Below, one piece after another: positions 3-27,551 of a DNA stretch of 64,000 nucleotides. The DNA is taken from assembly GCF_053078305.1 (NCBI RefSeq), contig NZ_CP166879.1. One strand, written 5' to 3'. A program made the translations under genes and the position numbers. The notes under the pieces were generated by a model. It did no database searches and was not told the DNA's origin. It was given only the letters and a program-made list of their open reading frames with translations. How positions within the stretch are numbered: the stretch's first letter is position 1; every line of letters starts with the position of its first letter.

Positions 3-2879
3 AATCCTGACACTTATTTCCAGTCTCGCGAAGCCACCAACCCATGGTACAACGCGGTCTATGACCATGTTGAACAGGCGATGAATGATTTCGCTGCCGC
101 GACAGGTCGTCAGTATCAGCCGTTTGAATATTACGGGCATCCGCAAGCGGAACGGGTGATTATCCTGATGGGCTCTGCCATTGGTACCTGTGAAGAAGTG
201 GTTGATGAATTGCTAACCCGTGGCGAAAAAGTTGGCGTGCTGAAAGTTCGTCTGTACCGTCCCTTCTCCGCCAAACACTTGCTGCAAGCTCTGCCGGGAT
301 CCGTACGCAGCGTGGCGGTACTGGACAGAACCAAAGAACCCGGTGCCCAGGCAGAACCGCTCTATCTGGATGTAATGACCGCACTGGCAGAAGCCTTTAA
401 TAATGGCGAGCGCGAAACTCTGCCCCGTGTCATTGGTGGGCGCTATGGTCTTTCATCCAAAGAATTTGGCCCGGACTGTGTACTGGCGGTATTTGCCGAG
501 CTCAACGCGGCTAAACCGAAAGCGCGCTTTACGGTTGGTATTTACGATGATGTGACCAATCTGTCACTGCCGTTGCCGGAAAACACCCTGCCAAACTCGG
601 CGAAACTGGAAGCCTTGTTTTATGGGCTTGGTAGTGATGGCAGCGTTTCCGCGACCAAAAACAATATCAAGATTATCGGTAATTCCACGCCGTGGTACGC
701 ACAGGGCTATTTTGTTTACGACTCCAAAAAGGCGGGCGGCCTGACGGTTTCTCACCTTCGAGTGAGCGAACAGCCGATTCGTTCCGCTTATCTCATTTCC
801 CAGGCTGATTTTGTTGGCTGCCACCAGTTGCAGTTTATCGATAAATATCAGATGGCTGAGCGTTTAAAACCTGGCGGCATTTTCCTGCTCAACACGCCGT
901 ACAGCGCAGATGAAGTGTGGTCGCGCTTGCCGCAGGAAGTTCAGGCCGTGCTAAATCAGAAAAAAGCGCGCTTCTATGTGATTAACGCGGCGAAAATCGC
1001 CCGCGAATGTGGCCTGGCGGCCCGTATTAATACCGTCATGCAGATGGCTTTTTTCCATCTGACGCAAATTCTGCCTGGCGATAGCGCCCTCGCAGAATTG
1101 CAGGGTGCGATTGCCAAAAGTTACAGTAGCAAAGGTCAGGATCTGGTGGAACGCAACTGGCAGGCTCTGGCGCTGGCGCGTGAATCCGTAGAAGAAGTTC
1201 CGTTGCAGCCGGTTAATCCGCACAGCGCCAATCGACCGCCAGTGGTTTCCGATGCCGCCCCTGATTTCGTGAAAACCGTAACCGCGGCGATGCTCGCCGG
1301 GCTTGGTGATGCCCTCCCCGTTTCGGCGCTGCCGCCAGACGGCACCTGGCCGATGGGCACTACACGCTGGGAAAAACGCAATATCGCCGAAGAGATCCCC
1401 ATCTGGAAAGAGGAACTCTGTACCCAATGTAACCACTGTGTTGCCGCTTGCCCACACTCAGCTATTCGCGCAAAAGTGGTACCGCCTGAAGCGATGGAAA
1501 ACGCCCCTGCCAGCCTGCATTCGCTGGATGTGAAATCGCGTGATATGCGCGGGCAGAAATATGTCTTGCAGGTGGCTCCGGAAGATTGCACCGGTTGTAA
1601 CCTGTGCGTCGAAGTTTGCCCGGCGAAAGACCGTCAGAATCCAGAGATTAAAGCCATCAATATGATGTCGCGCCTGGAACATGTCGAAGAAGAGAAAATC
1701 AATTACGATTTCTTCCTCAACCTGCCAGAAATCGACCGTAGCAAACTGGAACGTATTGATATTCGTACATCGCAGCTGATTACACCGCTGTTTGAATATT
1801 CCGGTGCTTGCTCCGGTTGTGGCGAGACGCCGTATATTAAATTGCTGACTCAGCTCTATGGCGACCGGATGTTGATCGCTAACGCCACCGGCTGTTCTTC
1901 AATTTATGGCGGTAACCTGCCCTCTACACCGTATACCACCGATGCCAACGGTCGTGGGCCGGCATGGGCGAACTCTCTATTTGAAGATAATGCCGAATTT
2001 GGCCTTGGTTTCCGCCTGACGGTCGATCAACACCGTGTCCGCGTGCTGCGTCTGCTGGATCAATTTGCCGATAAAATCCCGGCGGAATTACTGACGGCGT
2101 TGAAATCAGACGCTACGCCAGAGGTTCGTCGAGAACAGGTCGCAGCTTTACGCCAGCAACTCAACGATGTTGCCGAAGCACATGAACTGCTGCGTGACGC
2201 AGATGCACTGGTAGAAAAATCAATCTGGCTGATTGGTGGCGACGGCTGGGCTTACGATATCGGCTTTGGCGGTCTGGATCATGTATTGAGTTTGACGGAA
2301 AACGTCAACATTCTGGTGCTGGATACGCAATGCTATTCCAACACCGGTGGTCAGGCGTCGAAAGCGACACCGCTGGGTGCAGTAACTAAATTTGGCGAGC
2401 ACGGCAAACGTAAAGCGCGTAAAGATCTTGGCGTCAGTATGATGATGTACGGTCATGTTTATGTGGCGCAGATTTCTCTCGGCGCGCAACTGAACCAGAC
2501 GGTGAAAGCGATTCAGGAAGCGGAAGCGTATCCGGGACCATCGCTGATCATCGCTTATAGCCCATGTGAAGAGCATGGTTACGATCTGGCACTCAGCCAT
2601 GACCAGATGCGCCAACTCACAGCTACCGGCTTCTGGCCGCTATATCGCTTCGATCCGCGTCGTGCCGATGAAGGCAAACTGCCGCTGGCGCTGGATTCAC
2701 GCCCGCCGTCAGAAGCACTGGAAGAAACGTTACTTCACGAGCAACGTTTCCGTCGTCTGAATTCGCAGCAGCCAGAAGTGGCAGAACAGTTATGGAAAGA
2801 TGCTGCAGCTGATTTGCAAAAACGCTATGACTTCCTGGCACAAATGGCCGGAAAAGCGGAAAAAAGCAACACCGATTAA
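3..2879 (+). CDS. ydbK: Pyruvate:flavodoxin/ferredoxin oxidoreductase, C-terminal ~959 codons; 5-prime end lies upstream of the window
   Basis: Reading frame is open from position 3 with no stop before the first ATG at 81. Two 4Fe-4S ferredoxin motifs (CTQCNHCVAACP, CTGCNLCVEVCP) and a TPP-binding GDGW region are present. Stop at 2879. Confidence 0.9.
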   Translation, partial: NPDTYFQSREATNPWYNAVYDHVEQAMNDFAAATGRQYQPFEYYGHPQAERVIILMGSAIGTCEEVVDELLTRGEKVGVLKVRLYRPFSAKHLLQALPGSVRSVAVLDRTKEPGAQAEPLYLDVMTALAEAFNNGERETLPRVIGGRYGLSSKEFGPDCVLAVFAELNAAKPKARFTVGIYDDVTNLSLPLPENTLPNSAKLEALFYGLGSDGSVSATKNNIKIIGNSTPWYAQGYFVYDSKKAGGLTVSHLRVSEQPIRSAYLISQADFVGCHQLQFIDKYQMAERLKPGGIFLLNTPYSADEVWSRLPQEVQAVLNQKKARFYVINAAKIARECGLAARINTVMQMAFFHLTQILPGDSALAELQGAIAKSYSSKGQDLVERNWQALALARESVEEVPLQPVNPHSANRPPVVSDAAPDFVKTVTAAMLAGLGDALPVSALPPDGTWPMGTTRWEKRNIAEEIPIWKEELCTQCNHCVAACPHSAIRAKVVPPEAMENAPASLHSLDVKSRDMRGQKYVLQVAPEDCTGCNLCVEVCPAKDRQNPEIKAINMMSRLEHVEEEKINYDFFLNLPEIDRSKLERIDIRTSQLITPLFEYSGACSGCGETPYIKLLTQLYGDRMLIANATGCSSIYGGNLPSTPYTTDANGRGPAWANSLFEDNAEFGLGFRLTVDQHRVRVLRLLDQFADKIPAELLTALKSDATPEVRREQVAALRQQLNDVAEAHELLRDADALVEKSIWLIGGDGWAYDIGFGGLDHVLSLTENVNILVLDTQCYSNTGGQASKATPLGAVTKFGEHGKRKARKDLGVSMMMYGHVYVAQISLGAQLNQTVKAIQEAEAYPGPSLIIAYSPCEEHGYDLALSHDQMRQLTATGFWPLYRFDPRRADEGKLPLALDSRPPSEALEETLLHEQRFRRLNSQQPEVAEQLWKDAAADLQKRYDFLAQMAGKAEKSNTD

Positions 2880-2908
2880 ATGCTCTGGATAAGGATTATC
2901 CAATTCTA

Positions 2909-3017
2909 AAAAAAAGCCCGGACGACTGTTCGGGCTTGTCTTTTTATATGTTGGAAAATCAGTGGCAATGCAATGGCCCAACAGAAAATAAAATCTGTGA
3001 CAATAAAGGCATATAAC
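2909..3017 (-). ncRNA. micC: MicC small regulatory RNA, divergent from ompN
   Basis: Minus-strand sequence GTTATATGCCTTTATTGTCACAGATTTTATTTTCTGTTGGGCC... matches the MicC sequence as I recall it. It ends in the hairpin GCCCGAACAGTCGTCCGGGC plus a U-run. Confidence 0.8.
2916..2935. terminator. Bidirectional intrinsic terminator shared by ydbK (plus) and micC (minus)
   Basis: GC-rich inverted repeat gcccg-N10-cgggc flanked by an A-run (2908-2915) and a T-rich run (2938-2944). Confidence 0.7.
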
Positions 3018-3244
3018 CCGCGCAGAATAACGTATAGAAAATTAAAAGTATAATTTTTATTTTGTATGTATTATCTTCGATACATTCACCAGACTTATTA
3101 TCATTTCAGAGGAATTATTTGATTAAGGTTTTACTTAAGGCGTAACAAATGATATTTATCGGCTAACTGAACTTCTCCTTTAGGATGTTTTCACTCCCCG
3201 AAATGGGGATAAAAGGCAAATAAAATAACTAAAGGATTTATTCA

Positions 3245-4378
3245 ATGAAAAGCAAAGTACTGGCACTTTTAATTCCTGCCCTGCTCGCCGCAGGTGCTGC
3301 ACATGCAGCCGAAGTTTATAATAAAGACGGCAACAAATTAGATCTGTATGGCAAAGTTGATGGCCTGCATTATTTTTCTGATAATTCAGCGAAAGATGGC
3401 GACCAGAGCTATGCGCGTCTGGGTTTTAAAGGCGAAACCCAAATTAACGATCAACTTACTGGCTACGGTCAATGGGAATACAATATTCAGGCAAACAACA
3501 CTGAATCTTCAAAAAACCAGTCATGGACCCGTCTGGCATTTGCCGGACTGAAATTTGCAGATTACGGTTCTTTCGATTACGGACGTAATTATGGCGTAAT
3601 GTACGACATCGAAGGCTGGACCGATATGCTGCCTGAATTTGGCGGTGACTCTTATACCAATGCAGACAACTTTATGACTGGTCGAGCCAATGGCGTCGCG
3701 ACTTATCGTAATACTGATTTCTTCGGTCTGGTAAATGGTCTGAACTTCGCGGTGCAGTATCAAGGTAACAACGAAGGAGCCAGTAATGGTCAGGAAGGCA
3801 CCAACAACGGACGTGATGTTCGCCATGAAAACGGTGACGGCTGGGGTCTTTCCACAACATATGATTTAGGCATGGGCTTTAGCGCTGGTGCGGCATACAC
3901 ATCTTCTGACCGCACCAATGACCAGGTTAACCATACTGCGGCGGGTGGTGATAAAGCAGACGCGTGGACTGCTGGGCTAAAATACGATGCTAACAATATT
4001 TACCTGGCAACCATGTATTCAGAAACGCGTAATATGACCCCGTTTGGCGACAGCGATTATGCTGTTGCAAACAAAACCCAGAACTTTGAAGTCACTGCAC
4101 AGTACCAGTTTGATTTTGGTCTGCGTCCGGCAGTCTCTTTCCTGATGTCTAAAGGCCGTGACCTGCACGCTGCCGGTGGTGCAGACAACCCGGCAGGTGT
4201 TGATGATAAAGATCTGGTTAAATACGCCGATGTTGGCGCGACTTACTATTTCAATAAAAACATGTCCACCTATGTTGACTATAAAATCAACCTGTTGGAT
4301 GAAGATGACAGTTTCTACGCTGCCAACGGCATCTCTACCGATGATATTGTCGCTTTAGGTCTGGTTTATCAGTTCTAA
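3245..4378 (+). CDS. ompN: Outer membrane porin N (OmpC/OmpF family), 377 aa
   Basis: Signal peptide [21 protein letters not shown] followed by [16 protein letters not shown], a typical general-porin N-terminus, and a C-terminal aromatic residue. Length matches the K-12 protein. Confidence 0.9.
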
Positions 4379-4386
4379 ATCCTCCT

Positions 4387-4411
4387 GCCCGCTGTTATGG
4401 CGGGCTTTTTC
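4387..4411 (+). terminator. Intrinsic terminator after ompN
   Basis: Hairpin gcccgc-tgttatg-gcgggc followed by ttttt. Confidence 0.7.
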
Positions 4412-4437
4412 TGCTTATTCTTCCTCCTTTGATCTAA

Positions 4438-4953
<516 letters not shown>

Positions 4954-4960
4954 CACTAAC

Positions 4961-4985
4961 GCCCGCACATTGCTGCGGGCTTTTT
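4961..4985 (+). terminator. Intrinsic terminator after uspF
   Basis: Hairpin gcccgca...tgcgggc followed by ttttt. Confidence 0.6.
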
Positions 4986-5128
4986 GATTCATTTCGCAAA
5001 TGTGCTGACATTTTCCCCTCTAATCCGTACCATACACGCCACAGTTTTTATATCAGATTTCTTATGCTGGGCGTTCCGGCATGACGCATACTCTTCTGAT
5101 GCCATATAACGAATTGAGTCGCTTTTAA

Positions 5129-6064
5129 ATGTCGCAAAATCAAGAAATTAGCAAGAAAGAACAATACAACCTGAACAAATTACAAAAACGTCTGCGTCGT
5201 AACGTGGGCGAAGCCATTGCTGACTTCAATATGATTGAAGAAGGCGATCGCATCATGGTTTGCCTCTCCGGGGGTAAAGACAGCTATACCATGCTGGAGA
5301 TTCTGCGCAATTTGCAGCAAAGCGCGCCAATCAATTTTTCGCTGGTGGCTGTTAACCTCGATCAAAAGCAACCGGGCTTCCCGGAACACGTTCTGCCCGA
5401 GTATCTTGAAAAGCTGGGCGTTGAGTACAAGATTGTTGAAGAGAACACTTACGGTATCGTGAAAGAGAAGATTCCAGAGGGCAAAACCACTTGCTCACTG
5501 TGTTCTCGGCTACGTCGCGGTATCCTTTATCGCACCGCAACGGAACTGGGGGCGACGAAGATCGCGTTGGGCCACCATCGTGACGATATCCTGCAAACGT
5601 TGTTCTTAAATATGTTCTACGGCGGCAAGATGAAAGGTATGCCTCCGAAACTGATGAGCGATGATGGCAAACATATCGTTATTCGTCCGCTGGCCTACTG
5701 CCGCGAGAAAGATATTCAGCGATTTGCCGATGCAAAAGCGTTCCCGATTATTCCGTGCAACCTGTGCGGTTCACAGCCTAACCTGCAACGTCAGGTGATT
5801 GCTGACATGTTGCGTGACTGGGATAAACGTTATCCAGGGCGTATCGAGACGATGTTCAGCGCGATGCAGAATGTGGTGCCGTCGCATCTGTGCGATACCA
5901 ACCTGTTCGATTTCAAAGGCATCACCCACGGTTCTGAAGTGGTTAACGGGGGTGATCTGGCGTTTGATCGCGAAGAGATCCCACTACAACCGGCGGGCTG
6001 GCAGCCAGAAGAAGATGAAAATCAGTTGGATGAGTTACGGCTGAATGTGGTTGAAGTGAAATAA
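5129..6064 (+). CDS. ttcA: tRNA 2-thiocytidine biosynthesis protein TtcA, 311 aa, uninterrupted
   Basis: PP-loop motif CLSGGKDS and conserved Cys pairs. Full length equals the K-12 protein. Confidence 0.9.
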
Positions 6065-6071
6065 CCAGGAT

Positions 6072-6146
6072 AGCGCCCGATGCGCAAGCGTATCGGGCTA
6101 CTCTTATGGAGGCCGGATAAGACGCGGCCAGCGTCGCATCCGGCAA
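6072..6146. repeat. REP (repetitive extragenic palindromic) elements, two units
   Basis: gcgcccgatgcg...gtatcgggc and gccggataagacgcggccagcgtcgcatccggc, a typical GCCGGATG-type REP palindrome, lying between the convergent ttcA and dbpA 3-prime ends. Confidence 0.6.
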
Positions 6147-6192
6147 TCCCGAATAAGATGTTTACTCTTGCACCCGGCAATTCAACATTTCA

Positions 6193-7566
6193 TTATTTTA
6201 ATAACCGCACCCGGCACGTTTTTCCTTTAATCTTCCCGCCCTGTAACTGTTTCCATGCTTTATGAGCAACAGCCTGACGGACCGCGACATAGACATGCGC
6301 CGGATGCACGGCGATTTTGCCAATATCTGCGCCATCAAGCCCGATATCTCCTGTCAGTGCACCTAATACATCACCCGGGCGCATTTTGGCTTTTTTCCCG
6401 CCATCGATACACAACGTTGCCATTTCTGCTTCCAGCGTCACAATGGAACTATTAGCTGGCGGCGTTTGCCAGTTAAGTTTTATCTGCAACATGTCAGAAA
6501 TGATATTGGCCCGCTGTGCTTCTTCCGGAGCACAGAAACTGATCGCCAGACCGCTATTTCCTGCACGAGCTGTACGACCGATGCGATGTACATGAACTTC
6601 AGGGTCCCACGCCAGCTCAAAGTTCACCACCAGCTCAAGCGATTTAATATCCAGACCACGCGCAGCAACATCAGTCGCGACCAGTACACGGGCGCTACCG
6701 TTAGCAAAACGTACCAGGGTCTGATCGCGATCGCGTTGCTCCAAATCGCCGTGTAATGACAATGCACTTTGCCCTACTTCATTCAGCGCGTCGCAGACAG
6801 CCTGGCAATCTTTTTTGGTATTGCAAAACACCACGCAAGAGGATGGCTGATGCAAGCTTAATAACCGTTGCAACAGAGGAATTTTGCCTTTACTGGATGT
6901 CTCATAAAATTGTTGATCAATGGGTGGCAAAGCATCTGTTGAGTCAATTTCAATCGCCAAAGGATCGCGTTGCACTCGTCCGCTGATTGCGGCGATGGCT
7001 TCCGGCCAGGTTGCCGAAAACAGAAGCGTCTGTCGAGATGCTGGCGCAAAACGGATGACATCATCAATGGCATCGCTAAATCCCATATCCAGCATGCGGT
7101 CGGCCTCATCCATCACCAGCGTATTCAACGCATCCAGTGATACCGTGCCTTTTTGCAGGTGATCCAGCAAACGCCCCGGCGTTGCCACGATAATATGCGG
7201 CGCATGTTGCAACGAATCACGCTGCATACCGAACGGTTGACCACCGCACAACGTCAAAATTTTGGTATTTGGCAGAAAACGCGCCAGCCGACGCAATTCA
7301 CCTGCCACCTGATCCGCCAGTTCACGCGTAGGACACAGCACTAAAGCCTGGGTTTGAAATAGCGACGCATCAATTTGCTGTAACAAGCCGAGGCCAAAAG
7401 CCGCCGTTTTGCCGCTGCCGGTTTTCGCCTGCACGCGAACATCTTTTCCGGCAAGGATCGCCGGAAGCGCGGCGGCCTGCACCGGCGTCATGGTTAAATA
7501 ACCCAACTCATTAAGGTTCGTGAGTTGGGCGGGAGGCAAAACATTCAGGGTAGAAAAAGCGGTCAC
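6193..7566 (-). CDS. dbpA: ATP-dependent 23S rRNA-specific DEAD-box RNA helicase DbpA, 457 aa, GTG start
   Basis: DEAD box (VMDEADRM), Walker A (AKTGSGKT) and SAT motif. The start codon is GTG (plus-strand cac at 7564-7566). Confidence 0.9.
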   Translation of the reverse strand: MTAFSTLNVLPPAQLTNLNELGYLTMTPVQAAALPAILAGKDVRVQAKTGSGKTAAFGLGLLQQIDASLFQTQALVLCPTRELADQVAGELRRLARFLPNTKILTLCGGQPFGMQRDSLQHAPHIIVATPGRLLDHLQKGTVSLDALNTLVMDEADRMLDMGFSDAIDDVIRFAPASRQTLLFSATWPEAIAAISGRVQRDPLAIEIDSTDALPPIDQQFYETSSKGKIPLLQRLLSLHQPSSCVVFCNTKKDCQAVCDALNEVGQSALSLHGDLEQRDRDQTLVRFANGSARVLVATDVAARGLDIKSLELVVNFELAWDPEVHVHRIGRTARAGNSGLAISFCAPEEAQRANIISDMLQIKLNWQTPPANSSIVTLEAEMATLCIDGGKKAKMRPGDVLGALTGDIGLDGADIGKIAVHPAHVYVAVRQAVAHKAWKQLQGGKIKGKTCRVRLLK

Positions 7567-7595
7567 AATCTATTCTCGTGGTCATCGACGCAAAG

Positions 7596-7769
7596 TTAGC
7601 AGGCGCGTATCCTCGCAGATCTACGTTCACGATGCGACAATTTAATCGGTTCTTCATCGGGTGGTGGGTCAGGCATGGGTTGCGGGCGAGGGATCGGATC
7701 GGGCACTGGAACAGGATCGCCAGGAATCGGTTCAGGGACAGGAATTTGCAAATAAATAAGTGTCGTCAT
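7596..7769 (-). CDS. Candidate 57-aa proline-rich small protein or leader peptide immediately upstream of dbpA
   Basis: ATG preceded by GGAGGG about 6 nt upstream. Translation MTTLIYLQIPVPEPIPGDPVPVPDPIPRPQPMPDPPPDEEPIKLSHRERRSARIRAC. Stop lies 29 nt before the dbpA start. Too short for the supplied ORF track. Confidence 0.3.
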   Translation of the reverse strand: MTTLIYLQIPVPEPIPGDPVPVPDPIPRPQPMPDPPPDEEPIKLSHRERRSARIRAC

Positions 7770-7826
7770 ATTTCCCTCCGGTCATTGGGTGGACTCTTAA
7801 AGGGTAGACGCTGATAAATAACAGGC

Positions 7827-7948
7827 AAAAAAAAGCCGACTCATCAAAGTCGGCGTCGTACGAATCAATTGTGCTATGCAGTAATTCAAAAAAGGAAGTA
7901 AGACAATATGGAGCGCAACGCCCATCGCTTGACGTTGCATTCACCTGC
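7827..7948 (-). ncRNA. fnrS: FnrS small RNA (FNR-activated)
   Basis: Minus-strand GCAGGTGAATGCAACGTCAAGCGATGGGCGTTGCGCTCCATATTGTCTTACTTCC... ending in hairpin GCCGACTTTGATGAGTCGGC plus U8, matching FnrS as I recall it. Confidence 0.8.
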
Positions 7949-7983
7949 AAGAGAGATATTGCCCTGAATGGGTAGAGAGTTTA

Positions 7984-7997
7984 TTGACTTCGCTCAA
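7984..7997. promoter_or_regulatory. FNR binding site in the fnrS promoter
   Basis: TTGAG-CGAA-GTCAA (minus-strand reading) fits the FNR consensus TTGAT-N4-ATCAA. It is centred about 42 bp upstream of the fnrS 5-prime end, the expected position for a class II activator site. Confidence 0.65.
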
Positions 7998-8043
7998 ACT
8001 TTGCGGCGTTTTTGTATACAGACAGCCGGAAAAATTGCTTTTG

Positions 8044-9048
<1,005 letters not shown>

Positions 9049-9281
9049 TTATTTTGTAGTCTAGCCTTCTGGCCCTGTTACGCAACATCTCATCACCCCA
9101 TTACCCTGAAATGATTAATAAAATTCTGTCTAAATTGAATACAAAAAGCAAAATGCTTTTCCGTATACAAACCGTGTGAAGTGTTAAATAGCGTCTATCA
9201 TTATCAGAATTATCTGATCATATGACGTGGCTTTTTTGCGATCGGATAGCAACAAAAATTGATAAAAATAATGGGATCTCA

Positions 9282-10514
9282 ATGATTACGCACAACTTCA
9301 ATACCCTGGACTTACTCACCAGTCCTGTCTGGATCGTTTCGCCCTTTGAGGAACAGTTAATTTATGCCAATAGCGCGGCGCGACTGTTGATGCAAGACCT
9401 CACGTTTAGTCAGCTACGAACCGGTCCCTATTCCGTCTCCTCACAAAAAGAACTGCCGAAATACCTCTCCGATCTGCAAAACCAACACGATATTATCGAA
9501 ATCCTCACTGTTCAGCGTAAAGAAGAGGAAACAGCATTAAGCTGTCGGCTTGTTTTGCGAGAGCTGACAGAAACAGAACCGGTGATTATTTTCGAAGGTA
9601 TCGAAGCGCCGGCAACGCTGGGTTTAAAAGCCAGTCGCTCAGCAAATTATCAGCGCAAAAAACAAGGTTTTTATGCGCGCTTTTTTCTGACTAACTCTGC
9701 ACCAATGTTGTTGATTGACCCGTCACGAGATGGCCAAATCGTCGATGCTAACCTCGCCGCGCTCAATTTCTATGGTTATAACCATGAAACGATGTGCCAG
9801 AAACATACCTGGGAAATAAATATGCTCGGGCGTCGCGTCATGCCTATCATGCATGAAATTTCGCATTTACCCGGCGGTCATAAACCTTTGAATTTTGTTC
9901 ATAAACTGGCGGATGGATCTACTCGTCATGTGCAGACCTATGCCGGACCGATTGAAATTTATGGCGACAAGCTCATGTTATGTATTGTGCATGATATTAC
10001 TGAGCAAAAACGGCTGGAGGAGCAGCTGGAACATGCTGCTCACCATGACGCGATGACCGGATTACTGAATCGGCGACAGTTTTATCACATTACGGAACCA
10101 GGCCAAATGCAGCATCTCGCCATCGCTCAGGATTACAGCTTGTTGCTCATCGACACCGATCGTTTTAAACACATTAACGATCTCTATGGGCATTCTAAAG
10201 GTGATGAGGTGTTATGCGCCCTCGCCCGCACCCTCGAAAGTTGCGCTCGCAAAGGCGATTTGGTGTTTCGTTGGGGAGGCGAAGAGTTTGTCTTATTGCT
10301 ACCAAGAACCCCACTGGATACCGCGCTTTCGCTGGCTGAAACTATCCGCGTAAGCGTGGCAAAAGTGAGTATTTCGGGCTTACCACGCTTTACCGTCAGC
10401 ATTGGTGTGGCGCATCACGAAGGAAATGAAAGCATCGATGAACTGTTTAAACGCGTTGATGATGCTTTGTATCGGGCGAAAAATGATGGACGCAACCGCG
10501 TGCTGGCGGCATAA
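9282..10514 (+). CDS. dgcM: Diguanylate cyclase DgcM (YdaM), PAS-GGDEF, 410 aa
   Basis: GGEEF active-site motif (RWGGEEFVLLL). Start taken at MITHNFNTL to give the K-12 length; the track ORF from 9222 is an upstream extension. Confidence 0.85.
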   Translation: MITHNFNTLDLLTSPVWIVSPFEEQLIYANSAARLLMQDLTFSQLRTGPYSVSSQKELPKYLSDLQNQHDIIEILTVQRKEEETALSCRLVLRELTETEPVIIFEGIEAPATLGLKASRSANYQRKKQGFYARFFLTNSAPMLLIDPSRDGQIVDANLAALNFYGYNHETMCQKHTWEINMLGRRVMPIMHEISHLPGGHKPLNFVHKLADGSTRHVQTYAGPIEIYGDKLMLCIVHDITEQKRLEEQLEHAAHHDAMTGLLNRRQFYHITEPGQMQHLAIAQDYSLLLIDTDRFKHINDLYGHSKGDEVLCALARTLESCARKGDLVFRWGGEEFVLLLPRTPLDTALSLAETIRVSVAKVSISGLPRFTVSIGVAHHEGNESIDELFKRVDDALYRAKNDGRNRVLAA

Positions 10515-12336: not shown

Positions 12337-12511
12337 GACGCCACCGATAACCGTTATTTATCAGACCAAAGAAACTGGCATCTACTTTAATGCAGATGAT
12401 TGTGTCAGGGTAATTTATGAACGGTTAAAACTGTGAAAAATCAGTTAGTGATAAGTAAAAACTATCGCTACGTGAACCGGGTCACACTTTTTACTGATGA
12501 CGGGAAAGGTT

Positions 12512-21037: not shown

Positions 21038-22651
21038 TCAATGCTTCACAATATACATAGTCCGACTGTACGCCACATCTTCAGGGTTATTAATGGGATA
21101 ACCTTTCAGCCACGGTTTGATTAATCGTCCATTGGTATATTGATAAATTGGTGCAATCGGTGCTTGCTCCATGAGGATTTTTTCTGCCGCGTTGTAATCG
21201 GCATTACGCGCTTTAACGGTATTTTCCGTCGATGCCTGGACCAGAACTTTGTCGTATGCCGGATTGTAAAAGCGTGAAATATTTCCTGAATGCGTTGACG
21301 TTAATAATGTCAGGAAAGTGGAGGGTTCATTATAATCCCCCACCCATGAGGCGCGGATAACATCAAAATTGCCGGTGTTACGGCTATCGATATAGGTTTT
21401 CCATTCCTGATTTTGCAATTTAACATCTACGCCAAGGTTCTTTTTCCACATCGATGCTACAGCAATCGCAATTTTTTGATGGTTTTCTGAAGTGTTATAC
21501 AAAAGCGTCAGCTTCAGCGGTTTTTGCGGACCATAACCAGCTGCGCTCAACAAAGTTTTTGCCTGCGCATTCAGTTCTTCCTGACTCATTTGTTCAAACG
21601 GCGAAGGTTCCGGCGTAAATCCGGCGGTAACATCTGGTGTAAAATGCCACGCTGGCTTTTCGCCCGTCCCTAATACTTTTTCGGTCATCAGGCGGCGATC
21701 TATCGTCATACTTAATGCCAGACGAACGCGCTGATCTGCCGTCGGCCCTTTTTGCGTGTTAAACGCATAATAATAGGTCCCGAGCTGCGGCGGCGTATAA
21801 ACCTGCCCCGGAATATCCTTCAACAGCTTCTGATACATATTTTTCGGGAAGGATTCGGTGATATCAATATCCCCCGCGAGGTAACGCTTAGTGGCTGCGG
21901 ATTCCTGATTAATTGGCAGGAAGGTCACTTTTTGCAGTACCGTTTTGGCGTTATCCCAATAATGGGTATTCGGTACCACGACCAGTTTTTCATTGACTAC
22001 GCGCTCTTTAAGAACATAAGCGCCATTGCCGATCAGATTTCCGGGTTTCGTCCACTCTTTACCGCTTTCTACGTTGGCTTTTTGCACCGGGAAGAAGGCA
22101 AAGTTAGCGGTTAAATTCACAAACCACGGCAACGGTTTATCAAGCTGAATTTTCAAAGTATGGGCATCAACTGCGGTGACGCCAAGCTGGTCAGGCGTAG
22201 CTTTACCATCAATAATCGCCTGTGCGTTGTTGATTCCCGCCAGCGCGGCAAACCATGCAAATGGCGATAGCGTTTTCGGGTCCACCAGACGCTGCCAGCT
22301 GTAGACAAAATCTTGCGCCGTTACCGGTGTGCCATCCGCCCATTTTGCGTTATCGCGCAGGGTAAAAGTCCAGATACGGTTGTCATTACTTTTCCACTGA
22401 GTCGCAACGCCGGGGACAATCTCCCCTTTCTCGTTCTGATTCACCAGTCCTTCAAACAGATCGCGAATGACCTGAATCTCTGGCAGGCCCACGGCTTTAG
22501 CGGGATCCAGCGACGCAGGCTCATCTTTAATGTGGCGCACCAGCTCCTGCTTCTCTGCCAGTACTGTGCCGCTCGGAACTTCTGCAGCATACGAAAGAGA
22601 AATGCTGCTGACCAACAGCGCACAACACGTGACTGAAACAGAGTGCTTCAT
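21038..22651 (-). CDS. mppA: Periplasmic murein tripeptide-binding protein MppA (SBP family 5), 537 aa
   Basis: Signal peptide MKHSVSVTCCALLVSSISLSYA and an OppA-like fold. Start at MKHSV preceded by GAGGGAAA. Confidence 0.85.
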   Translation of the reverse strand: MKHSVSVTCCALLVSSISLSYAAEVPSGTVLAEKQELVRHIKDEPASLDPAKAVGLPEIQVIRDLFEGLVNQNEKGEIVPGVATQWKSNDNRIWTFTLRDNAKWADGTPVTAQDFVYSWQRLVDPKTLSPFAWFAALAGINNAQAIIDGKATPDQLGVTAVDAHTLKIQLDKPLPWFVNLTANFAFFPVQKANVESGKEWTKPGNLIGNGAYVLKERVVNEKLVVVPNTHYWDNAKTVLQKVTFLPINQESAATKRYLAGDIDITESFPKNMYQKLLKDIPGQVYTPPQLGTYYYAFNTQKGPTADQRVRLALSMTIDRRLMTEKVLGTGEKPAWHFTPDVTAGFTPEPSPFEQMSQEELNAQAKTLLSAAGYGPQKPLKLTLLYNTSENHQKIAIAVASMWKKNLGVDVKLQNQEWKTYIDSRNTGNFDVIRASWVGDYNEPSTFLTLLTSTHSGNISRFYNPAYDKVLVQASTENTVKARNADYNAAEKILMEQAPIAPIYQYTNGRLIKPWLKGYPINNPEDVAYSRTMYIVKH

Positions 22652-22987
22652 AAGTTTCCCTCTAACCGACATTAAAATTGATGCGTAATTATTTGTTTCG
22701 CCTTAAAGAAATGCAAACAACTTCCATCAAAAAAGTGACACAGGAAGCATAAAATGTTTTATGTATCAATATATTAAATCAGATTTAGTGTAAATAATAG
22801 ACGCCAAAATGCGGCAAAGCACATAGAACACCGAACACTACGTTCGGGCTTCGCACGTTCAAACCAGTTTTCGGTATCATAATCAGCATCTGTCGCCATT
22901 GTACGAAGAATAAAAAATAACCAAAACGTTGAAAGGAACTGAGAATACGTTAAGAGAAGAATTAAATTAATGTATCAGCAAGTAGTG

Positions 22988-23887
22988 CTAAACAGCACCT
23001 TTATACTTCAGCCTATCTATAAATAATGAGAATGCCGAGCCAGCATGTCGACGGTGTGGATAGTACAGGTGATAACCGGGTAAATCTGGTGTGAATTTAT
23101 CCAAAACACGTATCAGTTTTTTTTCTTTAATAGCCCGCTCAACCTGATCATAAGGTAGATACGCCAATCCATGCCCATCAATTGCAGCATCAATGATCAG
23201 GTCTATCGTATTCAGTAAAAGCTGACCTTCCATGCGAACACGAACTTCACGTCCACCGCGTATTAATCTCCAGCGATTTGCTGTACCCGATGTGGGAAGA
23301 TACAAATTAACTGCCTGATGATCTATTAATTGTGACACTGACGTTGGAACACTTCGGCGGGAAAAATAATCCGGTGAGCCAACAATAGCCATTGGTATAT
23401 CTGGCCCGATTCGAATGGCGATCATATCTTTATCCATCTCCCCACCCAGACGGACGCCTGCATCAAAACGCTCAGAAACGACATCAGTCAAACCATAATC
23501 AATGATAAGCTGAATATCAATTTCAGGGTGTGATTTCAGGAATGTGCGCATGGCTGGTAACAATATCGTTTTTGCTGCATGTTCTACAGTAGTAATACGT
23601 ATTGTCCCGGATGGGCGGTTCTGCAGATCGCTCAGGGATGCCAGGGCAGAATCTATGTCATGCAGCATAGGGCCAAGAACAGACAAAAGATGCTCGCCCG
23701 CTTCAGTAGGTACAACACTGCGCGTGGTTCGCGTCAGAAGCCGCAATCCCAATCGTTCTTCTATACGGCGCACTATCTGGCTTAATGCTGACTGCGCCAT
23801 GCTCAGGCGGGCTGCTGCGCGAGTGAAGCTACGCTCCTCTGCAACGACGACAAACGCCATCAGATCAGCGATCTCTTCACGCTTCAT
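22988..23887 (-). CDS. pgrR: LysR-family regulator PgrR (YcjZ), 299 aa
   Basis: LysR HTH (FTRAAARLSMAQSALSQIVRRIE). Divergent from ycjY. Confidence 0.85.
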   Translation of the reverse strand: MKREEIADLMAFVVVAEERSFTRAAARLSMAQSALSQIVRRIEERLGLRLLTRTTRSVVPTEAGEHLLSVLGPMLHDIDSALASLSDLQNRPSGTIRITTVEHAAKTILLPAMRTFLKSHPEIDIQLIIDYGLTDVVSERFDAGVRLGGEMDKDMIAIRIGPDIPMAIVGSPDYFSRRSVPTSVSQLIDHQAVNLYLPTSGTANRWRLIRGGREVRVRMEGQLLLNTIDLIIDAAIDGHGLAYLPYDQVERAIKEKKLIRVLDKFTPDLPGYHLYYPHRRHAGSAFSLFIDRLKYKGAV

Positions 23888-23912
23888 TTAGTATCTCCAT
23901 ACAATCTATTAA

Positions 23913-23926
23913 TCATTTAAATGATA
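23913..23926. promoter_or_regulatory. Perfect 14-bp palindrome ATCATTTAAATGAT in the pgrR/ycjY divergent promoter region; candidate operator
   Basis: The sequence is its own reverse complement. It is followed by two direct repeats of GGTCTAATCA at 23928-23937 and 23946-23955. Confidence 0.3.
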
Positions 23927-24024
23927 GGTCTAATCATGATTTTGGGTCTAATCAACTTAATGATCAATATCTATAGTGATATAACCAACCGTTAAAACGA
24001 ACCAACAACTCCATGAGGAACGGA

Positions 24025-24945
24025 ATGATGAATAATAAAGTCAGCTTCACTAACAGCAATAATCCAACCATCTCTTTGTCTGCAGTGATCTATTTTCCTC
24101 CAAAATTTGATGAAACCCGTCAATATCCGGCAATTGTGGTATCTCACCCAGGTGGGGGCGTTAAAGAACAAACGGCCGGAACTTATGCCGAAAAACTGGC
24201 GGAAAAGGGATTTGTCACTATTGCTTATGACGCATCTTATCAAGGTGAAAGTGGCGGCGAGCCGCGTCAGTTAGAAAACCCATACATTCGTACTGAAGAC
24301 ATCAGTGCCGTGATTGATTACCTGACAACGCTTTCTTATGTCGACAATACCCGAATTGGTGCGATGGGAATTTGTGCCGGTGCAGGATATACAGCCAATG
24401 CTGCAATTCAGGATCGCCGCATCAAGGCCATCGGTACCGTTAGTGCGGTCAATATTGGTTCGATGTTCCGTAATGGTTGGGAAAACAATGTGAAATCTAT
24501 TGATGCCCTGCCATACGTTGAAGCGGGTTCAAACGCCAGAACCAGCGATATTAGCAGCGGAGAATACGCCATTATGCCACTGGCACCAATGAAGGAGTCC
24601 GATGCGCCGAACGAAGAACTGCGTCAGGCCTGGGAGTATTACCACACCCCTCGCGCGCAGTATCCAACAGCACCGGGTTACGCTACTTTGCGCAGCCTTA
24701 ACCAGATTATTACCTATGATGCTTACCATATGGCGGAAGTGTACCTGACTCAGCCGACGCAGATTGTGGCGGGCAGCCAGGCAGGGAGCAAATGGATGAG
24801 TGACGACCTGTACGATCGGGCATCAAGCCAGGATAAACGCTATCACATTGTTGAAGGCGCAAACCATATGGATCTTTATGACGGCAAAGCCTATGTGGCT
24901 GAAGCAATTTCAGTATTAGCTCCGTTCTTTGAGGAAACTCTGTAA
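24025..24945 (+). CDS. ycjY: Alpha/beta hydrolase, dienelactone-hydrolase-like with a Cys nucleophile elbow, 306 aa
   Basis: G-x-C-x-G nucleophile motif (GICAGAG). Start at MMNNK with GAGGA upstream. The stop overlaps the next gene start. Confidence 0.8.
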   Translation: MMNNKVSFTNSNNPTISLSAVIYFPPKFDETRQYPAIVVSHPGGGVKEQTAGTYAEKLAEKGFVTIAYDASYQGESGGEPRQLENPYIRTEDISAVIDYLTTLSYVDNTRIGAMGICAGAGYTANAAIQDRRIKAIGTVSAVNIGSMFRNGWENNVKSIDALPYVEAGSNARTSDISSGEYAIMPLAPMKESDAPNEELRQAWEYYHTPRAQYPTAPGYATLRSLNQIITYDAYHMAEVYLTQPTQIVAGSQAGSKWMSDDLYDRASSQDKRYHIVEGANHMDLYDGKAYVAEAISVLAPFFEETL

Positions 24946-25874
24946 TGAAACATATTCAAATCCGCAATAGTGATATGGCCTGGCATATTGCTGCCAATAT
25001 TCAGTTTCCACCAAATTTTGATGAGTCAAAACAGTATCCGGCGATTATCAGCGTCCATCCTTTTGGCAGTTGTAAGGAGCAGACGTCTGGCAATATCTAT
25101 GGCAAGGCATTGGCTGAAAAAGGCTATGTCGTTCTCGCTTATGACGCCAGTTTCCAGGGAGAATCTGGTGGGGAGCCTCGTTGGATAGAAGATCCGACAC
25201 AGCGCGTAGAGGATATTAGCCGTGTTATCGATTATGCAGTAACTCTGCCATATGTTGATGCTGAACGCATTGGCGTGCTGGGTGTGTGTGGGGGGGGTGG
25301 CTATGCCATTAATGCCGCGCTGACAGAAAAACGAATTAAAGCTGTAGTGAGTATTACGGGTGTTAATATCGGGCGTCTTTTTCGGGAAGGTTTCAGCAAT
25401 TACGATCCGATTGGCGCATTGAATGCAATGGCGTCGCAACGAACCAAAGAGGCTCGTGGTGGAGAATTACAGATCAACGAATTACTTCCCGCCAGCCTGG
25501 ATGCAGCAAAAGCCCATGGACTGACCGAACGCGATGTTTATGAAGCAACTGACTACTATAAAACACCACGCGGGCAACAACCGGGAGGTGCGACAAAAAT
25601 GTTGTTCTCACATGCACAGAAAACGCTGGCCTGGGATGCCTTCGCATTTACTGAAGTGTTACTGACTCAGCCGGTGATGGTAGTAGTTGGTGAAAAAGTC
25701 GGTGCCTTCGGTGCTTATCGTGATGGACTGGAAGTCTATGGCCGGGCGATGGTTTCGCAGGATCGTCAGTTAGTTTCATTACCCGATTTCTCACATTATG
25801 AACTGTATGACAAACCGGAAGCAGTTCAGGAGGCGCTGGAAAAAGTTATTCCTTTTTTCAACACCCATCTGTGA
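24945..25874 (+). CDS. Second, tandem alpha/beta hydrolase paralogous to ycjY, 309 aa, intact
   Basis: Alignable with YcjY over its whole length (shared blocks AYDASxQGESGGEPR, EDISxVIDY, RIKA). Nucleophile motif GVCGGGG. Translationally coupled via TAATG. May correspond to the locus annotated as a remnant (ymjD) in K-12, from memory. Confidence 0.75.
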   Translation: MKHIQIRNSDMAWHIAANIQFPPNFDESKQYPAIISVHPFGSCKEQTSGNIYGKALAEKGYVVLAYDASFQGESGGEPRWIEDPTQRVEDISRVIDYAVTLPYVDAERIGVLGVCGGGGYAINAALTEKRIKAVVSITGVNIGRLFREGFSNYDPIGALNAMASQRTKEARGGELQINELLPASLDAAKAHGLTERDVYEATDYYKTPRGQQPGGATKMLFSHAQKTLAWDAFAFTEVLLTQPVMVVVGEKVGAFGAYRDGLEVYGRAMVSQDRQLVSLPDFSHYELYDKPEAVQEALEKVIPFFNTHL

Positions 25875-25894
25875 TAAGTTTCATGAGAAATATT

Positions 25895-26532
25895 ATGAAA
25901 AATGTACTCATTCTTGGTGCTGGCGGTCAGATAGCCCGCCATGTGATTAATCAACTGGCAGATAAACAAACCATTAAACAAACTTTATTTGCTCGTCAGC
26001 CAGCAAAAATACACAAACCCTATCCAACTAATAGCCAGATTATTATGGGGGATGTACTGAATCATGCAGCACTGAAGCAGGCCATGCAGGGACAGGATAT
26101 TGTGTATGCCAACCTTACGGGGGAAGATTTAGATATTCAGGCAAATTCAGTGATCGCTGCGATGAAAGCCTGTGATGTTAAACGTCTGATCTTTGTTCTT
26201 TCCCTCGGCATTTATGATGAAGTTCCAGGAAAATTTGGCGAATGGAATAATGCAGTTATTGGTGAGCCCCTAAACCATTCCGCAGGGCTGCGGATGCAAT
26301 TGAGGCTTCTGGACTGGAATATACAATTCTTCGCCCTGCCTGGCTGACGGATGAAGATATTATTGATTATGAGCTTACCTCACGCAATGAACCATTCAAA
26401 GGTACGATCGTATCACGTAAGAGTGTCGCAGCATTAATTACAGATATCATCGATAAACCTGAGAAACACATTGGTGAGAATATAGGCATCAATCAACCCG
26501 GGACTGATGGCGACAAGCCATTCTTCATGTAA
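25895..26532 (+). pseudogene. ymjC: NAD(P)-binding NmrA/SDR-like protein interrupted by a frameshift (ymjC-like)
   Basis: Rossmann motif ILGAGGQIARH. The frame runs to a stop at 26347, but a different frame continues as ...KPFRRAADAIEASGLEYTILRPAWLTDEDIIDYELT... to 26532. The shift maps to about 26265-26276 (gagcccctaaacc). Start codon uncertain (25883 or 25895). Confidence 0.55.
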
Positions 26533-26822
26533 ATCAATTATATAGCCACCATCGTACTGTACTATGTGCAGTACGATTTATTAAACTTATTAAGGTGAAC
26601 TGATCAATCAGATGCGATTAACATGTGTAGAACCAGTAAGAATAAAATACGCCATGTATATAACATTACGACAATTCTAATATCTGCACATCAATAAAAA
26701 TACAAACAACTTCCGGCAAAAAAGTGATACAAGATCGATGACATAGCGTTGAAGAAAAGGATTTGATAATCCGCAAAATTTGCACAACACTGCCTGTAAT
26801 ACTTCCTGAACCAGAGACGATC

Positions 26823-27525
26823 ATGACCGTAACCCGCCCACGCGCCGAACGCGGCGCATTTCCGCCCGGAACAGAACATTACGGACGTTCATTATTGGGC
26901 GCGCCGTTAATCTGGTTTCCGGCCCCTGCAGCCAGTCGCGAAAGTGGTTTGATTCTGGCTGGCACTCACGGTGATGAAAACTCTTCGGTCGTCACGCTCT
27001 CCTGTGCTCTGCGGACTTTGACACCTTCTTTGCGCCGCCATCATGTGGTGCTGTGTGTGAATCCTGACGGCTGCCAGCTGGGGTTACGGGCCAATGCTAA
27101 TGGTGTGGATTTAAACAGAAACTTTCCGGCGGCAAACTGGAAGGAAGGTGAAACGGTTTATCGCTGGAACAGCGCCGCTGAAGAACGTGATGTCGTATTA
27201 CTGACTGGTGACAAACCTGGCTCCGAACCTGAAACCCAGGCGCTGTGCCAGCTTATACACCGCATTCAACCTGCCTGGGTGGTCTCATTCCACGATCCAC
27301 TGGCCTGTATTGAAGATCCCAGACACAGCGAATTAGGCGAATGGCTGGCTCAGGCGTTTGAATTGCCTCTGGTAACCAGCGTCGGTTATGAAACGCCTGG
27401 CTCTTTCGGCAGTTGGTGTGCAGATCTGAACTTGCATTGCATCACCGCAGAGTTTCCGCCCATCTCCTCCGACGAAGCCAGCGAAAAATATCTCTTTGCG
27501 ATGGCAAACTTGCTGCGCTGGCATC

Positions 27526-27551
<26 letters not shown>
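26823..27551 (+). CDS. mpaA: Murein peptide amidase A (gamma-D-Glu-DAP amidase, M14-like), 242 aa
   Basis: Zinc-binding HxxE motif (GTHGDENSS). Start at MTVTRPRAERG. Confidence 0.85.

Follow-up and report, generated by a model that had tools for sequence, protein, structure and literature searches.

Direct repeats at mppA and mpaA of Escherichia coli: a probable junction duplication of an insertion into their ancestral control region

Results and Discussion

Gene organization between mppA and mpaA

The window, the whole stretch of 64,000 nucleotides analysed here, is E. coli chromosome of a non-K-12 type, with strain PS10-3 as its top match (99.7%). In this region, mppA and mpaA lie on either side of a four-gene cassette with a gene relic at its left end. 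The assignments of mppA and mpaA agree with the PGAP annotation of near-identical E. coli genomes. The genes and other main features are listed below.

ynaI, + strand, precedes mppA in the local order
21038-22651, - strand, mppA, ATG at 22651
22709-22745, copy A of the 37-bp repeat, AAATGCAAACAACTTCCATCAAAAAAGTGACACAGGA, left junction, positions 58-94 of the ancestral spacer counted from the mppA ATG
22746-26697, inserted cassette of 3,952 bp, containing the queH relic, pgrR (-), ycjY (+), the second alpha/beta hydrolase gene (+) and the SDR oxidoreductase gene (+)
22798-22908, - strand, queH relic, a foreign gene at the left end of the insert, 3' of pgrR
22988-23887, - strand, pgrR (ycjZ), the LysR-type regulator of the cassette
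23888-24024, divergent pgrR/ycjY spacer with two ATCA-N6-TGAT boxes (23912-23925 and 23951-23964)
24025-24945, + strand, ycjY, in the cassette, 3' of the pgrR/ycjY spacer
24945-25874, + strand, second alpha/beta hydrolase gene
25895-26533, + strand, SDR oxidoreductase gene, with its own probable terminator
26551-26590, + strand, hairpin and U-rich tail 3' of the SDR gene, probable cassette terminator
26698-26734, copy B of the 37-bp repeat, AAATACAAACAACTTCCGGCAAAAAAGTGATACAAGA, right junction, differs from the ancestral single copy by G5A alone in this strain
26823-27551, + strand, mpaA, ATG at 26823
ycjG (- strand) and then tpx (+ strand), after mpaA

The 37-bp direct repeats

The initial annotation reported a motif of about 35 nt upstream of mppA and again upstream of mpaA, with about 88% identity between the two (30 of 34 core positions). 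Both copies are indeed present, with their ends displaced by 1-2 nt. Over the full 37 nt, copies A and B are identical at 32 of 37 positions (86%), and outside these 37 nt the likeness drops immediately to AT-rich background. The distance to the ATG is 58-94 bp for copy A, upstream of mppA, and 89-125 bp for copy B, upstream of mpaA. The two are direct repeats on the + strand, 3,989 bp apart from start to start, in agreement with the earlier remark that they share one orientation although the genes are on opposite strands.

The degenerate pattern of the initial annotation has exactly 2 matches in the 64 kb, against 0.00 expected from 100 shuffles. Allowing up to 3 mismatches, we found no copies in the window beyond A and B. 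With a 51-nt query around copy A, 5,418 of 5,426 complete E. coli genomes gave hits, at a median of 2 places and at no more than 4 in any genome. These copy numbers rule out a dispersed intergenic repeat of the REP, ERIC or MITE-like kind, the outcome that the initial annotation had named as fatal to a regulatory role. No Rfam family matched the motif. A structured RNA or sRNA was also rejected, as Rfam at a permissive threshold gave only a sub-threshold RAGATH-10 match inside pgrR, unrelated to the motif.

Empty site and ancestral spacer

Neighbouring genes and the motif were mapped at 80 loci around MpaA relatives, with one genome per species. mppA and mpaA are adjacent in 5 Escherichia lineages and in ~65 other Enterobacteriaceae species, and their spacers are mostly 176-203 bp long. 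Wherever both genes were found at the loci of Citrobacter, Enterobacter, Klebsiella, Leclercia, Kluyvera and relatives, they were adjacent. A 182-bp divergent spacer with one motif copy is present in E. albertii, E. whittamii and Escherichia sp. MOD1-EC7003, as well as in two assemblies labelled E. coli (E69 and SCPM-O-B-8794). Among 5,426 complete E. coli genomes, 174 have the uninterrupted spacer, ST648 strains among them. The "two loci" at which the initial annotation wanted conservation to be sought are a single locus in most related species.

When the 57 bp on the mppA side of the window, the 37-bp motif and the 88 bp on the mpaA side are joined, they give the 182-bp Escherichia spacer base for base. 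The mppA-side flank is attached to copy A and the mpaA-side flank to copy B. This exact rebuilding of the spacer identifies the repeat as the two junctions of a 3,952-bp insertion (22746-26697) at which the target was duplicated. The cassette is missing from the 182-bp spacer of other Escherichia lineages and from the spacers of other genera.

The ancestral single-copy sequence is AAATGCAAACAACTTCCGGCAAAAAAGTGATACAAGA, and copy B of K-12 is identical to it. Copy A departs from the ancestral copy by four derived substitutions, which all lie in its right half. Two of the four (T>C and A>G) are common to Escherichia sp. E1V33 and are therefore old changes; the duplication could have been imperfect or partly derived from the donor. 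The junction sequences are alike in 16 of 16 sampled E. coli genomes and in Escherichia sp. E1V33, and this identity among carriers indicates one insertion event.

The inserted cassette is foreign, mobile DNA

A LysR-hydrolase-hydrolase-SDR block with ~79% nucleotide identity to the cassette is found on conjugative plasmids of Klebsiella aerogenes, K. variicola and K. pneumoniae, where the neighbouring genes differ from those of the E. coli locus. The PgrR protein is 88% identical to its homologue in the plasmid block. More distant versions of the gene block are present on Agrobacterium and Rhizobium plasmids, and PgrR homologues with 87-89% identity are common in Klebsiella, Raoultella and Kluyvera. 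A longer oxidoreductase cluster on metagenome-assembled contigs includes one homologue, whose protein NCBI names Klebsiella sp. R390. In Enterobacter asburiae, a PgrR homologue (89%) and one hydrolase are cargo of a lambdoid prophage (fetched locus 4939-6900), placed between the replication and the antitermination/lysis genes. The motif is absent beside the cassette homologues at the plasmid, chromosome and prophage loci fetched.

The left 240 bp of the E. coli insert have no homology to these cassettes. This end contains the queH relic, which PGAP calls a pseudogene in several genomes. Its 37-aa translation gave a weak match to Pfam QueH (i-Evalue 0.0054) and none in NCBIfam. No donor of the queH-pgrR junction was found in the plasmids searched or the cassette loci fetched. 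The ends of the insert (22746 and 26697) carry no terminal inverted repeats; no transposase or integrase is among its annotated genes, and no tRNA or tmRNA was found in it. The second hydrolase gene is a pseudogene in O157:H16 and O157:H7 strains, and mpaA of strain N12 is annotated with an internal stop (fetched locus 7646-8374), so the locus is partly decaying in several lineages.

Conserved blocks and predicted promoters

We aligned 72 mppA-mpaA spacers, of which 39 are non-redundant sequences from outside Escherichia. Five conserved blocks were recognized; they are listed with the features that contain them.

Block I, GTAATTATTTGTTTC, holds the predicted mppA -10
Block II, GAAATGCAAA, left end of the motif, whose minus strand is the predicted mppA -35
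Block III, AAArTTGAyA, right end of the motif, preceded by a conserved ACTT
Block IV, GAAACTATTTGATTA, mpaA side, in the right flank
Block V, TTTTGCACAACACTG, mpaA side, in the right flank
22652-22708, - strand, ancestral left flank (57 bp), with block I, the predicted mppA -10 and the 5' UTR
22688-22693, - strand, predicted mppA -10, AATAAT, in block I
22712-22717, - strand, predicted mppA sigma-70 -35, TTTGCA, in block II inside copy A
26735-26822, + strand, ancestral right flank (88 bp), with blocks IV and V, the candidate mpaA promoter and the Shine-Dalgarno sequence
26763-26768 and 26786-26791, + strand, candidate mpaA promoter, TTGATA and AACACT with a spacing of 17

Blocks I, II and III are 80-99% conserved in the 39 non-redundant spacers from outside Escherichia, and the duplicated 37 bp correspond exactly to blocks II-III. 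A promoter scan of the mppA strand gave TTTGCA-18-AATAAT at 22717-22688, with 9 of 12 consensus matches. Both hexamers fall in the most conserved blocks of the 72-spacer alignment, and their sequence, spacing and conservation among orthologues are those of a sigma-70 promoter. This pair probably represents the mppA promoter, and with blocks II and I taken as such, the left end of the motif would be its -35 hexamer. The pair TTGATA-17-AACACT in blocks IV and V is a weaker candidate for the mpaA promoter, with a poor -10 (3/6). Published transcription start tables and a search by promoter name had no mppA or mpaA entries; both assignments are drawn from consensus matches and conservation. The family-wide alignment thereby yields promoter and operator candidates for two genes whose regulation is poorly described.

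With the mppA start deduced from the -10, block III would lie at about -49 to -60. A role as the -35 of a rightward promoter was rejected, since 0 of 60 sequences offer a usable -10 at a distance of 16-18 bp. Together with the preceding ACTT, block III forms a dyad, CAACTT-N8-AAGTTG. This dyad was considered as an operator and rejected, since among 66 distinct spacers only 4 have it in perfect form, all labelled Leclercia (two of Leclercia adecarboxylata, Leclercia sp. 29361 and Leclercia sp. UBA7405). Consensus sequences for sigma-54, sigma-28, sigma-E, IHF, FNR and ArcA were compared by eye and none fitted. Possible roles for block III are those of an upstream promoter element and of a binding site. 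Compact bidirectional sigma-70 regions likewise have two back-to-back core promoters, predicted here at blocks II/I and IV/V, with a conserved element between them. Unlike those regions, the E. coli locus has had its centre duplicated, and its predicted promoters are now 4 kb apart.

Variation in the two copies

Segregating sites were counted in 16 E. coli genomes carrying the insertion, which are related to each other and thus not independent.

Left flank, mppA side: 0 of 57 sites
Copy A: 3 of 37 sites, none in the -35 half, the left 17 nt invariant
queH relic: 14 of 120 sites
Copy B: 6 of 37 sites
Right flank, mpaA side: 1 of 88 sites

In these 16 related genomes, copy B differs from the right flank (p = 0.003) but shows no significant difference from the relic (p = 0.57) or from copy A (p = 0.48). 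The G5A change of copy B alters the hexamer equivalent to the -35 in 6 of 16 strains, and two strains have an indel in its A-tract; three of the variable sites of copy B stem from one strain. The pattern is suggestive of constraint on the gene-proximal flanks and on the -35 of copy A, and of weak constraint on the block III region in both copies. It is suggestive only, because the sample is small and its members are related.

Judged from this variation and the predicted promoters, copy A probably still provides mppA with its -35 and the promoter sequence upstream of it. Copy B, which sits upstream of a separate predicted promoter of mpaA, is most likely a relic, either inert or under weak constraint; its -35 equivalent would be free to decay because it is without a -10 partner. 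As both copies retain block III, which is strongly conserved in the family, copy B could have a function for mpaA.

PgrR and other candidate regulators

MppA and MpaA belong to the same pathway, and the initial annotation proposed that a common factor, with PgrR as a candidate, acts on both genes through the two copies. This proposal is not supported, as copies A and B are one duplicated site rather than independent occurrences of a motif. The reading that the motif is a PgrR site controlling both genes draws on the position of pgrR between copies A and B and on the sequence ATCA-N6-TGAC in copy A, which matches 7 of 8 positions of the boxes in the pgrR/ycjY spacer; the motif also contains ACT-N11-AGT, which fits the generic T-N11-A form. 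Both ATCA-N6-TGAT boxes have been conserved in the cassettes of Klebsiella and Enterobacter, and the pgrR/ycjY spacer is likely the PgrR operator region. Matches to the box with one mismatch occur 73 times in the 64 kb, so the resemblance of copy A is uninformative, and the ancestral copy and copy B reach only 6 of 8. Box resemblance is therefore at chance level, and G5A has altered copy B in 6 of the 16 strains. Lineages and genera that have no pgrR at the locus nevertheless possess the conserved blocks and one copy of the motif, so these cannot have arisen as a PgrR site. PgrR binding to the motif is thus unsupported, because the motif is older than the arrival of pgrR.

A review table (PMC5934670) gives the ycjY/ycjZ spacer as the genomic-SELEX target of PgrR and lists a regulon of ycjG, ycjXF-tyrR and ycjY-ymjDC-mpaA, in which mpaA is reached through the ycjY operon. 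Control of ycjY-ymjD-ymjC-mpaA and of ycjG by PgrR is credited to Shimada et al. 2013 (cited in PMC5493296 and PMC5934670). Our findings and the PgrR regulon of K-12 have the locus in common, but the reported target is the ycjY/ycjZ spacer and not the 37-bp motif. Taken together, a PgrR site at the motif has hardly any likelihood left.

A literature search returned no report of a regulator binding to the motif or to the mppA and mpaA promoters. A CRP site was also considered and rejected: the ChIP-seq site labelled ycjZ/mppA (PMC4287617) maps to 12471-12486, ~10 kb from mppA. This site, CGTGAACCGGGTCACA in Table 1 of that paper, lies in the window between a 302-aa ORF (-) and a 441-aa ORF (+), and its K-12 homologue label "ycjZ/mppA" seems to be wrong.

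Origin of the duplication

We postulate that copies A and B are the junction duplication of one insertion into the ancestral mppA-mpaA control region, and we assign this a probability of about 0.8. In the ancestral state, mppA and mpaA would have been adjacent and divergent, with a 182-bp control region and one motif copy. In the lineage leading to most E. coli, 3,952 bp of foreign DNA would have entered the spacer, and the 37 bp at the insertion point would have ended up on either side of the insert. Copy A would have kept its -35 role at mppA, and copy B would have been parted from the -10 and left upstream of the candidate mpaA promoter. Such an origin explains why the copies face the same way despite the opposite orientation of the genes. 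A paralogous promoter module, which the initial annotation had offered as its alternative, comes near to this, in that the copies are paralogues of one duplicated segment of a control region.

Candidate mechanisms of the 37-bp duplication are staggered breaks with fill-in, replication template switching, and a single crossover via short homology. As in a transposon or IS insertion, the target is directly duplicated at both ends of the insert. The present insertion differs in that its 37-bp duplication greatly exceeds the 2-14 bp that transposases usually make, and in that the cassette has neither a transposase nor terminal inverted repeats. A Campbell-type single crossover of a circular molecule via short homology would likewise leave direct copies flanking the insert; among the cassette loci fetched, none contained the 37-bp segment to act as donor. 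At 37 bp, RecA-dependent exchange would be close to its lower length limit.

The copies might instead be operators of one conserved enterobacterial factor, other than PgrR, that co-regulates mppA and mpaA; a single ancestral site would have served both divergent promoters, and the duplication would have let both genes keep it after the insertion. This would agree with the strong conservation of blocks II-III across Enterobacteriaceae between two predicted core promoters, with block III being unexplained by any core promoter element, with a duplication that covers exactly these blocks so that both genes retain them, and with the shared pathway of the two proteins. Against it, copy B is polymorphic near the level of a non-functional relic whereas the adjoining 88 bp are almost invariant, and the dyad is not maintained outside the four Leclercia sequences. 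The site is conserved at the orthologous position, as a regulon operator would be, but independent occurrences at several promoters were not found, and no extra copies in the window or the genome indicate a regulon. We regard a shared operator as unlikely. Equally doubtful is its extension, in which the 37 bp would be the operator through which a family-wide regulator of murein-peptide uptake and catabolism acts on both divergent promoters, and the insertion would have become common in E. coli because the duplication spared the operator of both genes; if this were true, the pgrR cassette would have captured mpaA later, by read-through in K-12-type alleles.

A hallmark of site-specifically integrated islands is foreign DNA enclosed by direct repeats some tens of bp long, and the 37-bp repeats could be att-like sites of a small islet that is precisely inserted and excised by a recombinase encoded elsewhere. 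Excision would account for the presence/absence polymorphism within E. coli and for the clean empty site in the 174 genomes, the ST648 empty site bears the left-flank haplotype of insertion carriers, and in Salmonella and Citrobacter the spacer is occupied by foreign DNA of other kinds. The direct repeats are present at both junctions, but no integrase, tRNA or inverted repeats were found and there is no att core that travels with the cassette, whose relatives elsewhere lack the flanking motif. The identical junctions of carriers fit one ancient event that spread vertically or by homologous recombination; most empty alleles are on divergent haplotypes (~4% in mppA), as expected of old alleles rather than recent excisions; and other insertions in this spacer leave no duplication. 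These findings make recombinase-mediated insertion at att-like sites very improbable. A still smaller chance attaches to the reverse order of events, in which the two-copy state with the cassette came first and was reduced to single-copy spacers when the DNA between the repeats was deleted. Recombination between the 37-bp direct repeats would yield the observed empty site exactly, with ST648 as a possible case. It is contradicted in general by the outgroups, since every examined outgroup genus with adjacent genes has a single copy, as do four other species-level lineages of Escherichia and two further loci labelled E. coli or Escherichia sp.; moreover, the cassette is patchy, is borne by plasmids and a prophage elsewhere, and carries a queH relic foreign to the locus. 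Deletion in individual E. coli lineages is possible.

With the junction duplication as the preferred reading, the best comparison among known elements is with small genomic islets that have target-derived direct repeats at their borders. Viewed as promoter DNA, the motif would amount to a common sigma-70 -35 element with adjoining upstream sequence. In genomic islets with att-type repeats, a foreign block absent from relatives likewise sits between genes with target-duplicating direct repeats, and its cargo is likewise found on plasmids and in prophage. Compared with integrase islands, the E. coli cassette is ~4 kb with four genes and has no integrase, excisionase or tRNA/tmRNA target. What appeared to be a shared motif and a shared regulator is then one ancestral site copied by an insertion, and history replaces the regulatory account.

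K-12 deletions and the cassette terminator

The hairpin at 26551-26577 (dG -19.3 kcal/mol, z -4.3) is conserved in the Klebsiella cassettes. K-12-type alleles have two deletions in the cassette, corresponding to 25003-25894 and 26034-26696 of the window, and both are also present in Escherichia sp. E1V33. The deletion of 26034-26696 takes most of the SDR gene together with the terminator hairpin; its end lies at an AATA microhomology, 1 nt away from copy B. At least 80% of the region is retained in about half of E. coli genomes. Because the terminator is lost in K-12-type alleles, the K-12 "ycjY-ymjD-ymjC-mpaA operon" looks like a deletion product, which indicates that the link from ycjY to mpaA hinges on strain-specific deletions.

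PgrR, named "peptidoglycan recycling regulator", is the LysR-type gene product of a horizontally acquired cassette and is not ancestral to the murein-peptide pathway. In K-12 the cassette became joined transcriptionally to mpaA only after the two deletions, one of which removed the terminator. Conclusions drawn in K-12 may therefore fail in strains with an intact cassette and in the ~3% of E. coli without the cassette. The finding is an everyday case of genome evolution, and what it implies for the interpretation of PgrR is of moderate interest. No description of the 37-bp duplication was found in the papers searched.

Other events at the mppA-mpaA spacer

The empty site of ST648 is a mosaic. 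Its mppA and left flank are 98.5-98.9% identical to insertion carriers, and its mpaA is 97.9% identical to that of carrier strain 536 and 97.7% to that of empty-type strain 2013C-4282; in other empty-site strains mppA is ~4% diverged. The cassette may have been lost in ST648 either by recombination between the repeats or by allelic replacement.

Different DNA was found in the same spacer elsewhere. Salmonella enterica subsp. arizonae (fetched locus 6848-10000) and diarizonae (6562-10000) have a 3.1-3.4 kb insertion with three ORFs, the middle one encoding a member of the cytolethal distending toxin B family (NCBIfam E 1e-113). On the mppA side blocks I-II are lost, on the mpaA side blocks IV-V are kept, and there is no duplication. 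Citrobacter sp. 18056 (fetched locus 811-10000) has a 9.2-kb insertion between blocks II and IV that consists of a single 2,866-aa ORF with no NCBIfam match. Together with the E. coli case, these suggest that the spacer repeatedly takes up foreign DNA.

Two further E. coli strains have rearrangements that reach into mppA. In MFDS1019527 (fetched locus 4624-6251), the spacer is the empty 182-bp form and a prophage with a tyrosine integrase lies in mppA, of which only the first 66 bp are left next to the spacer. In MDR_56 (fetched locus 3139-6125), an IS421 element occupies the place of the entire cassette together with copy A and the mppA 5' end, and only copy B and mpaA remain.
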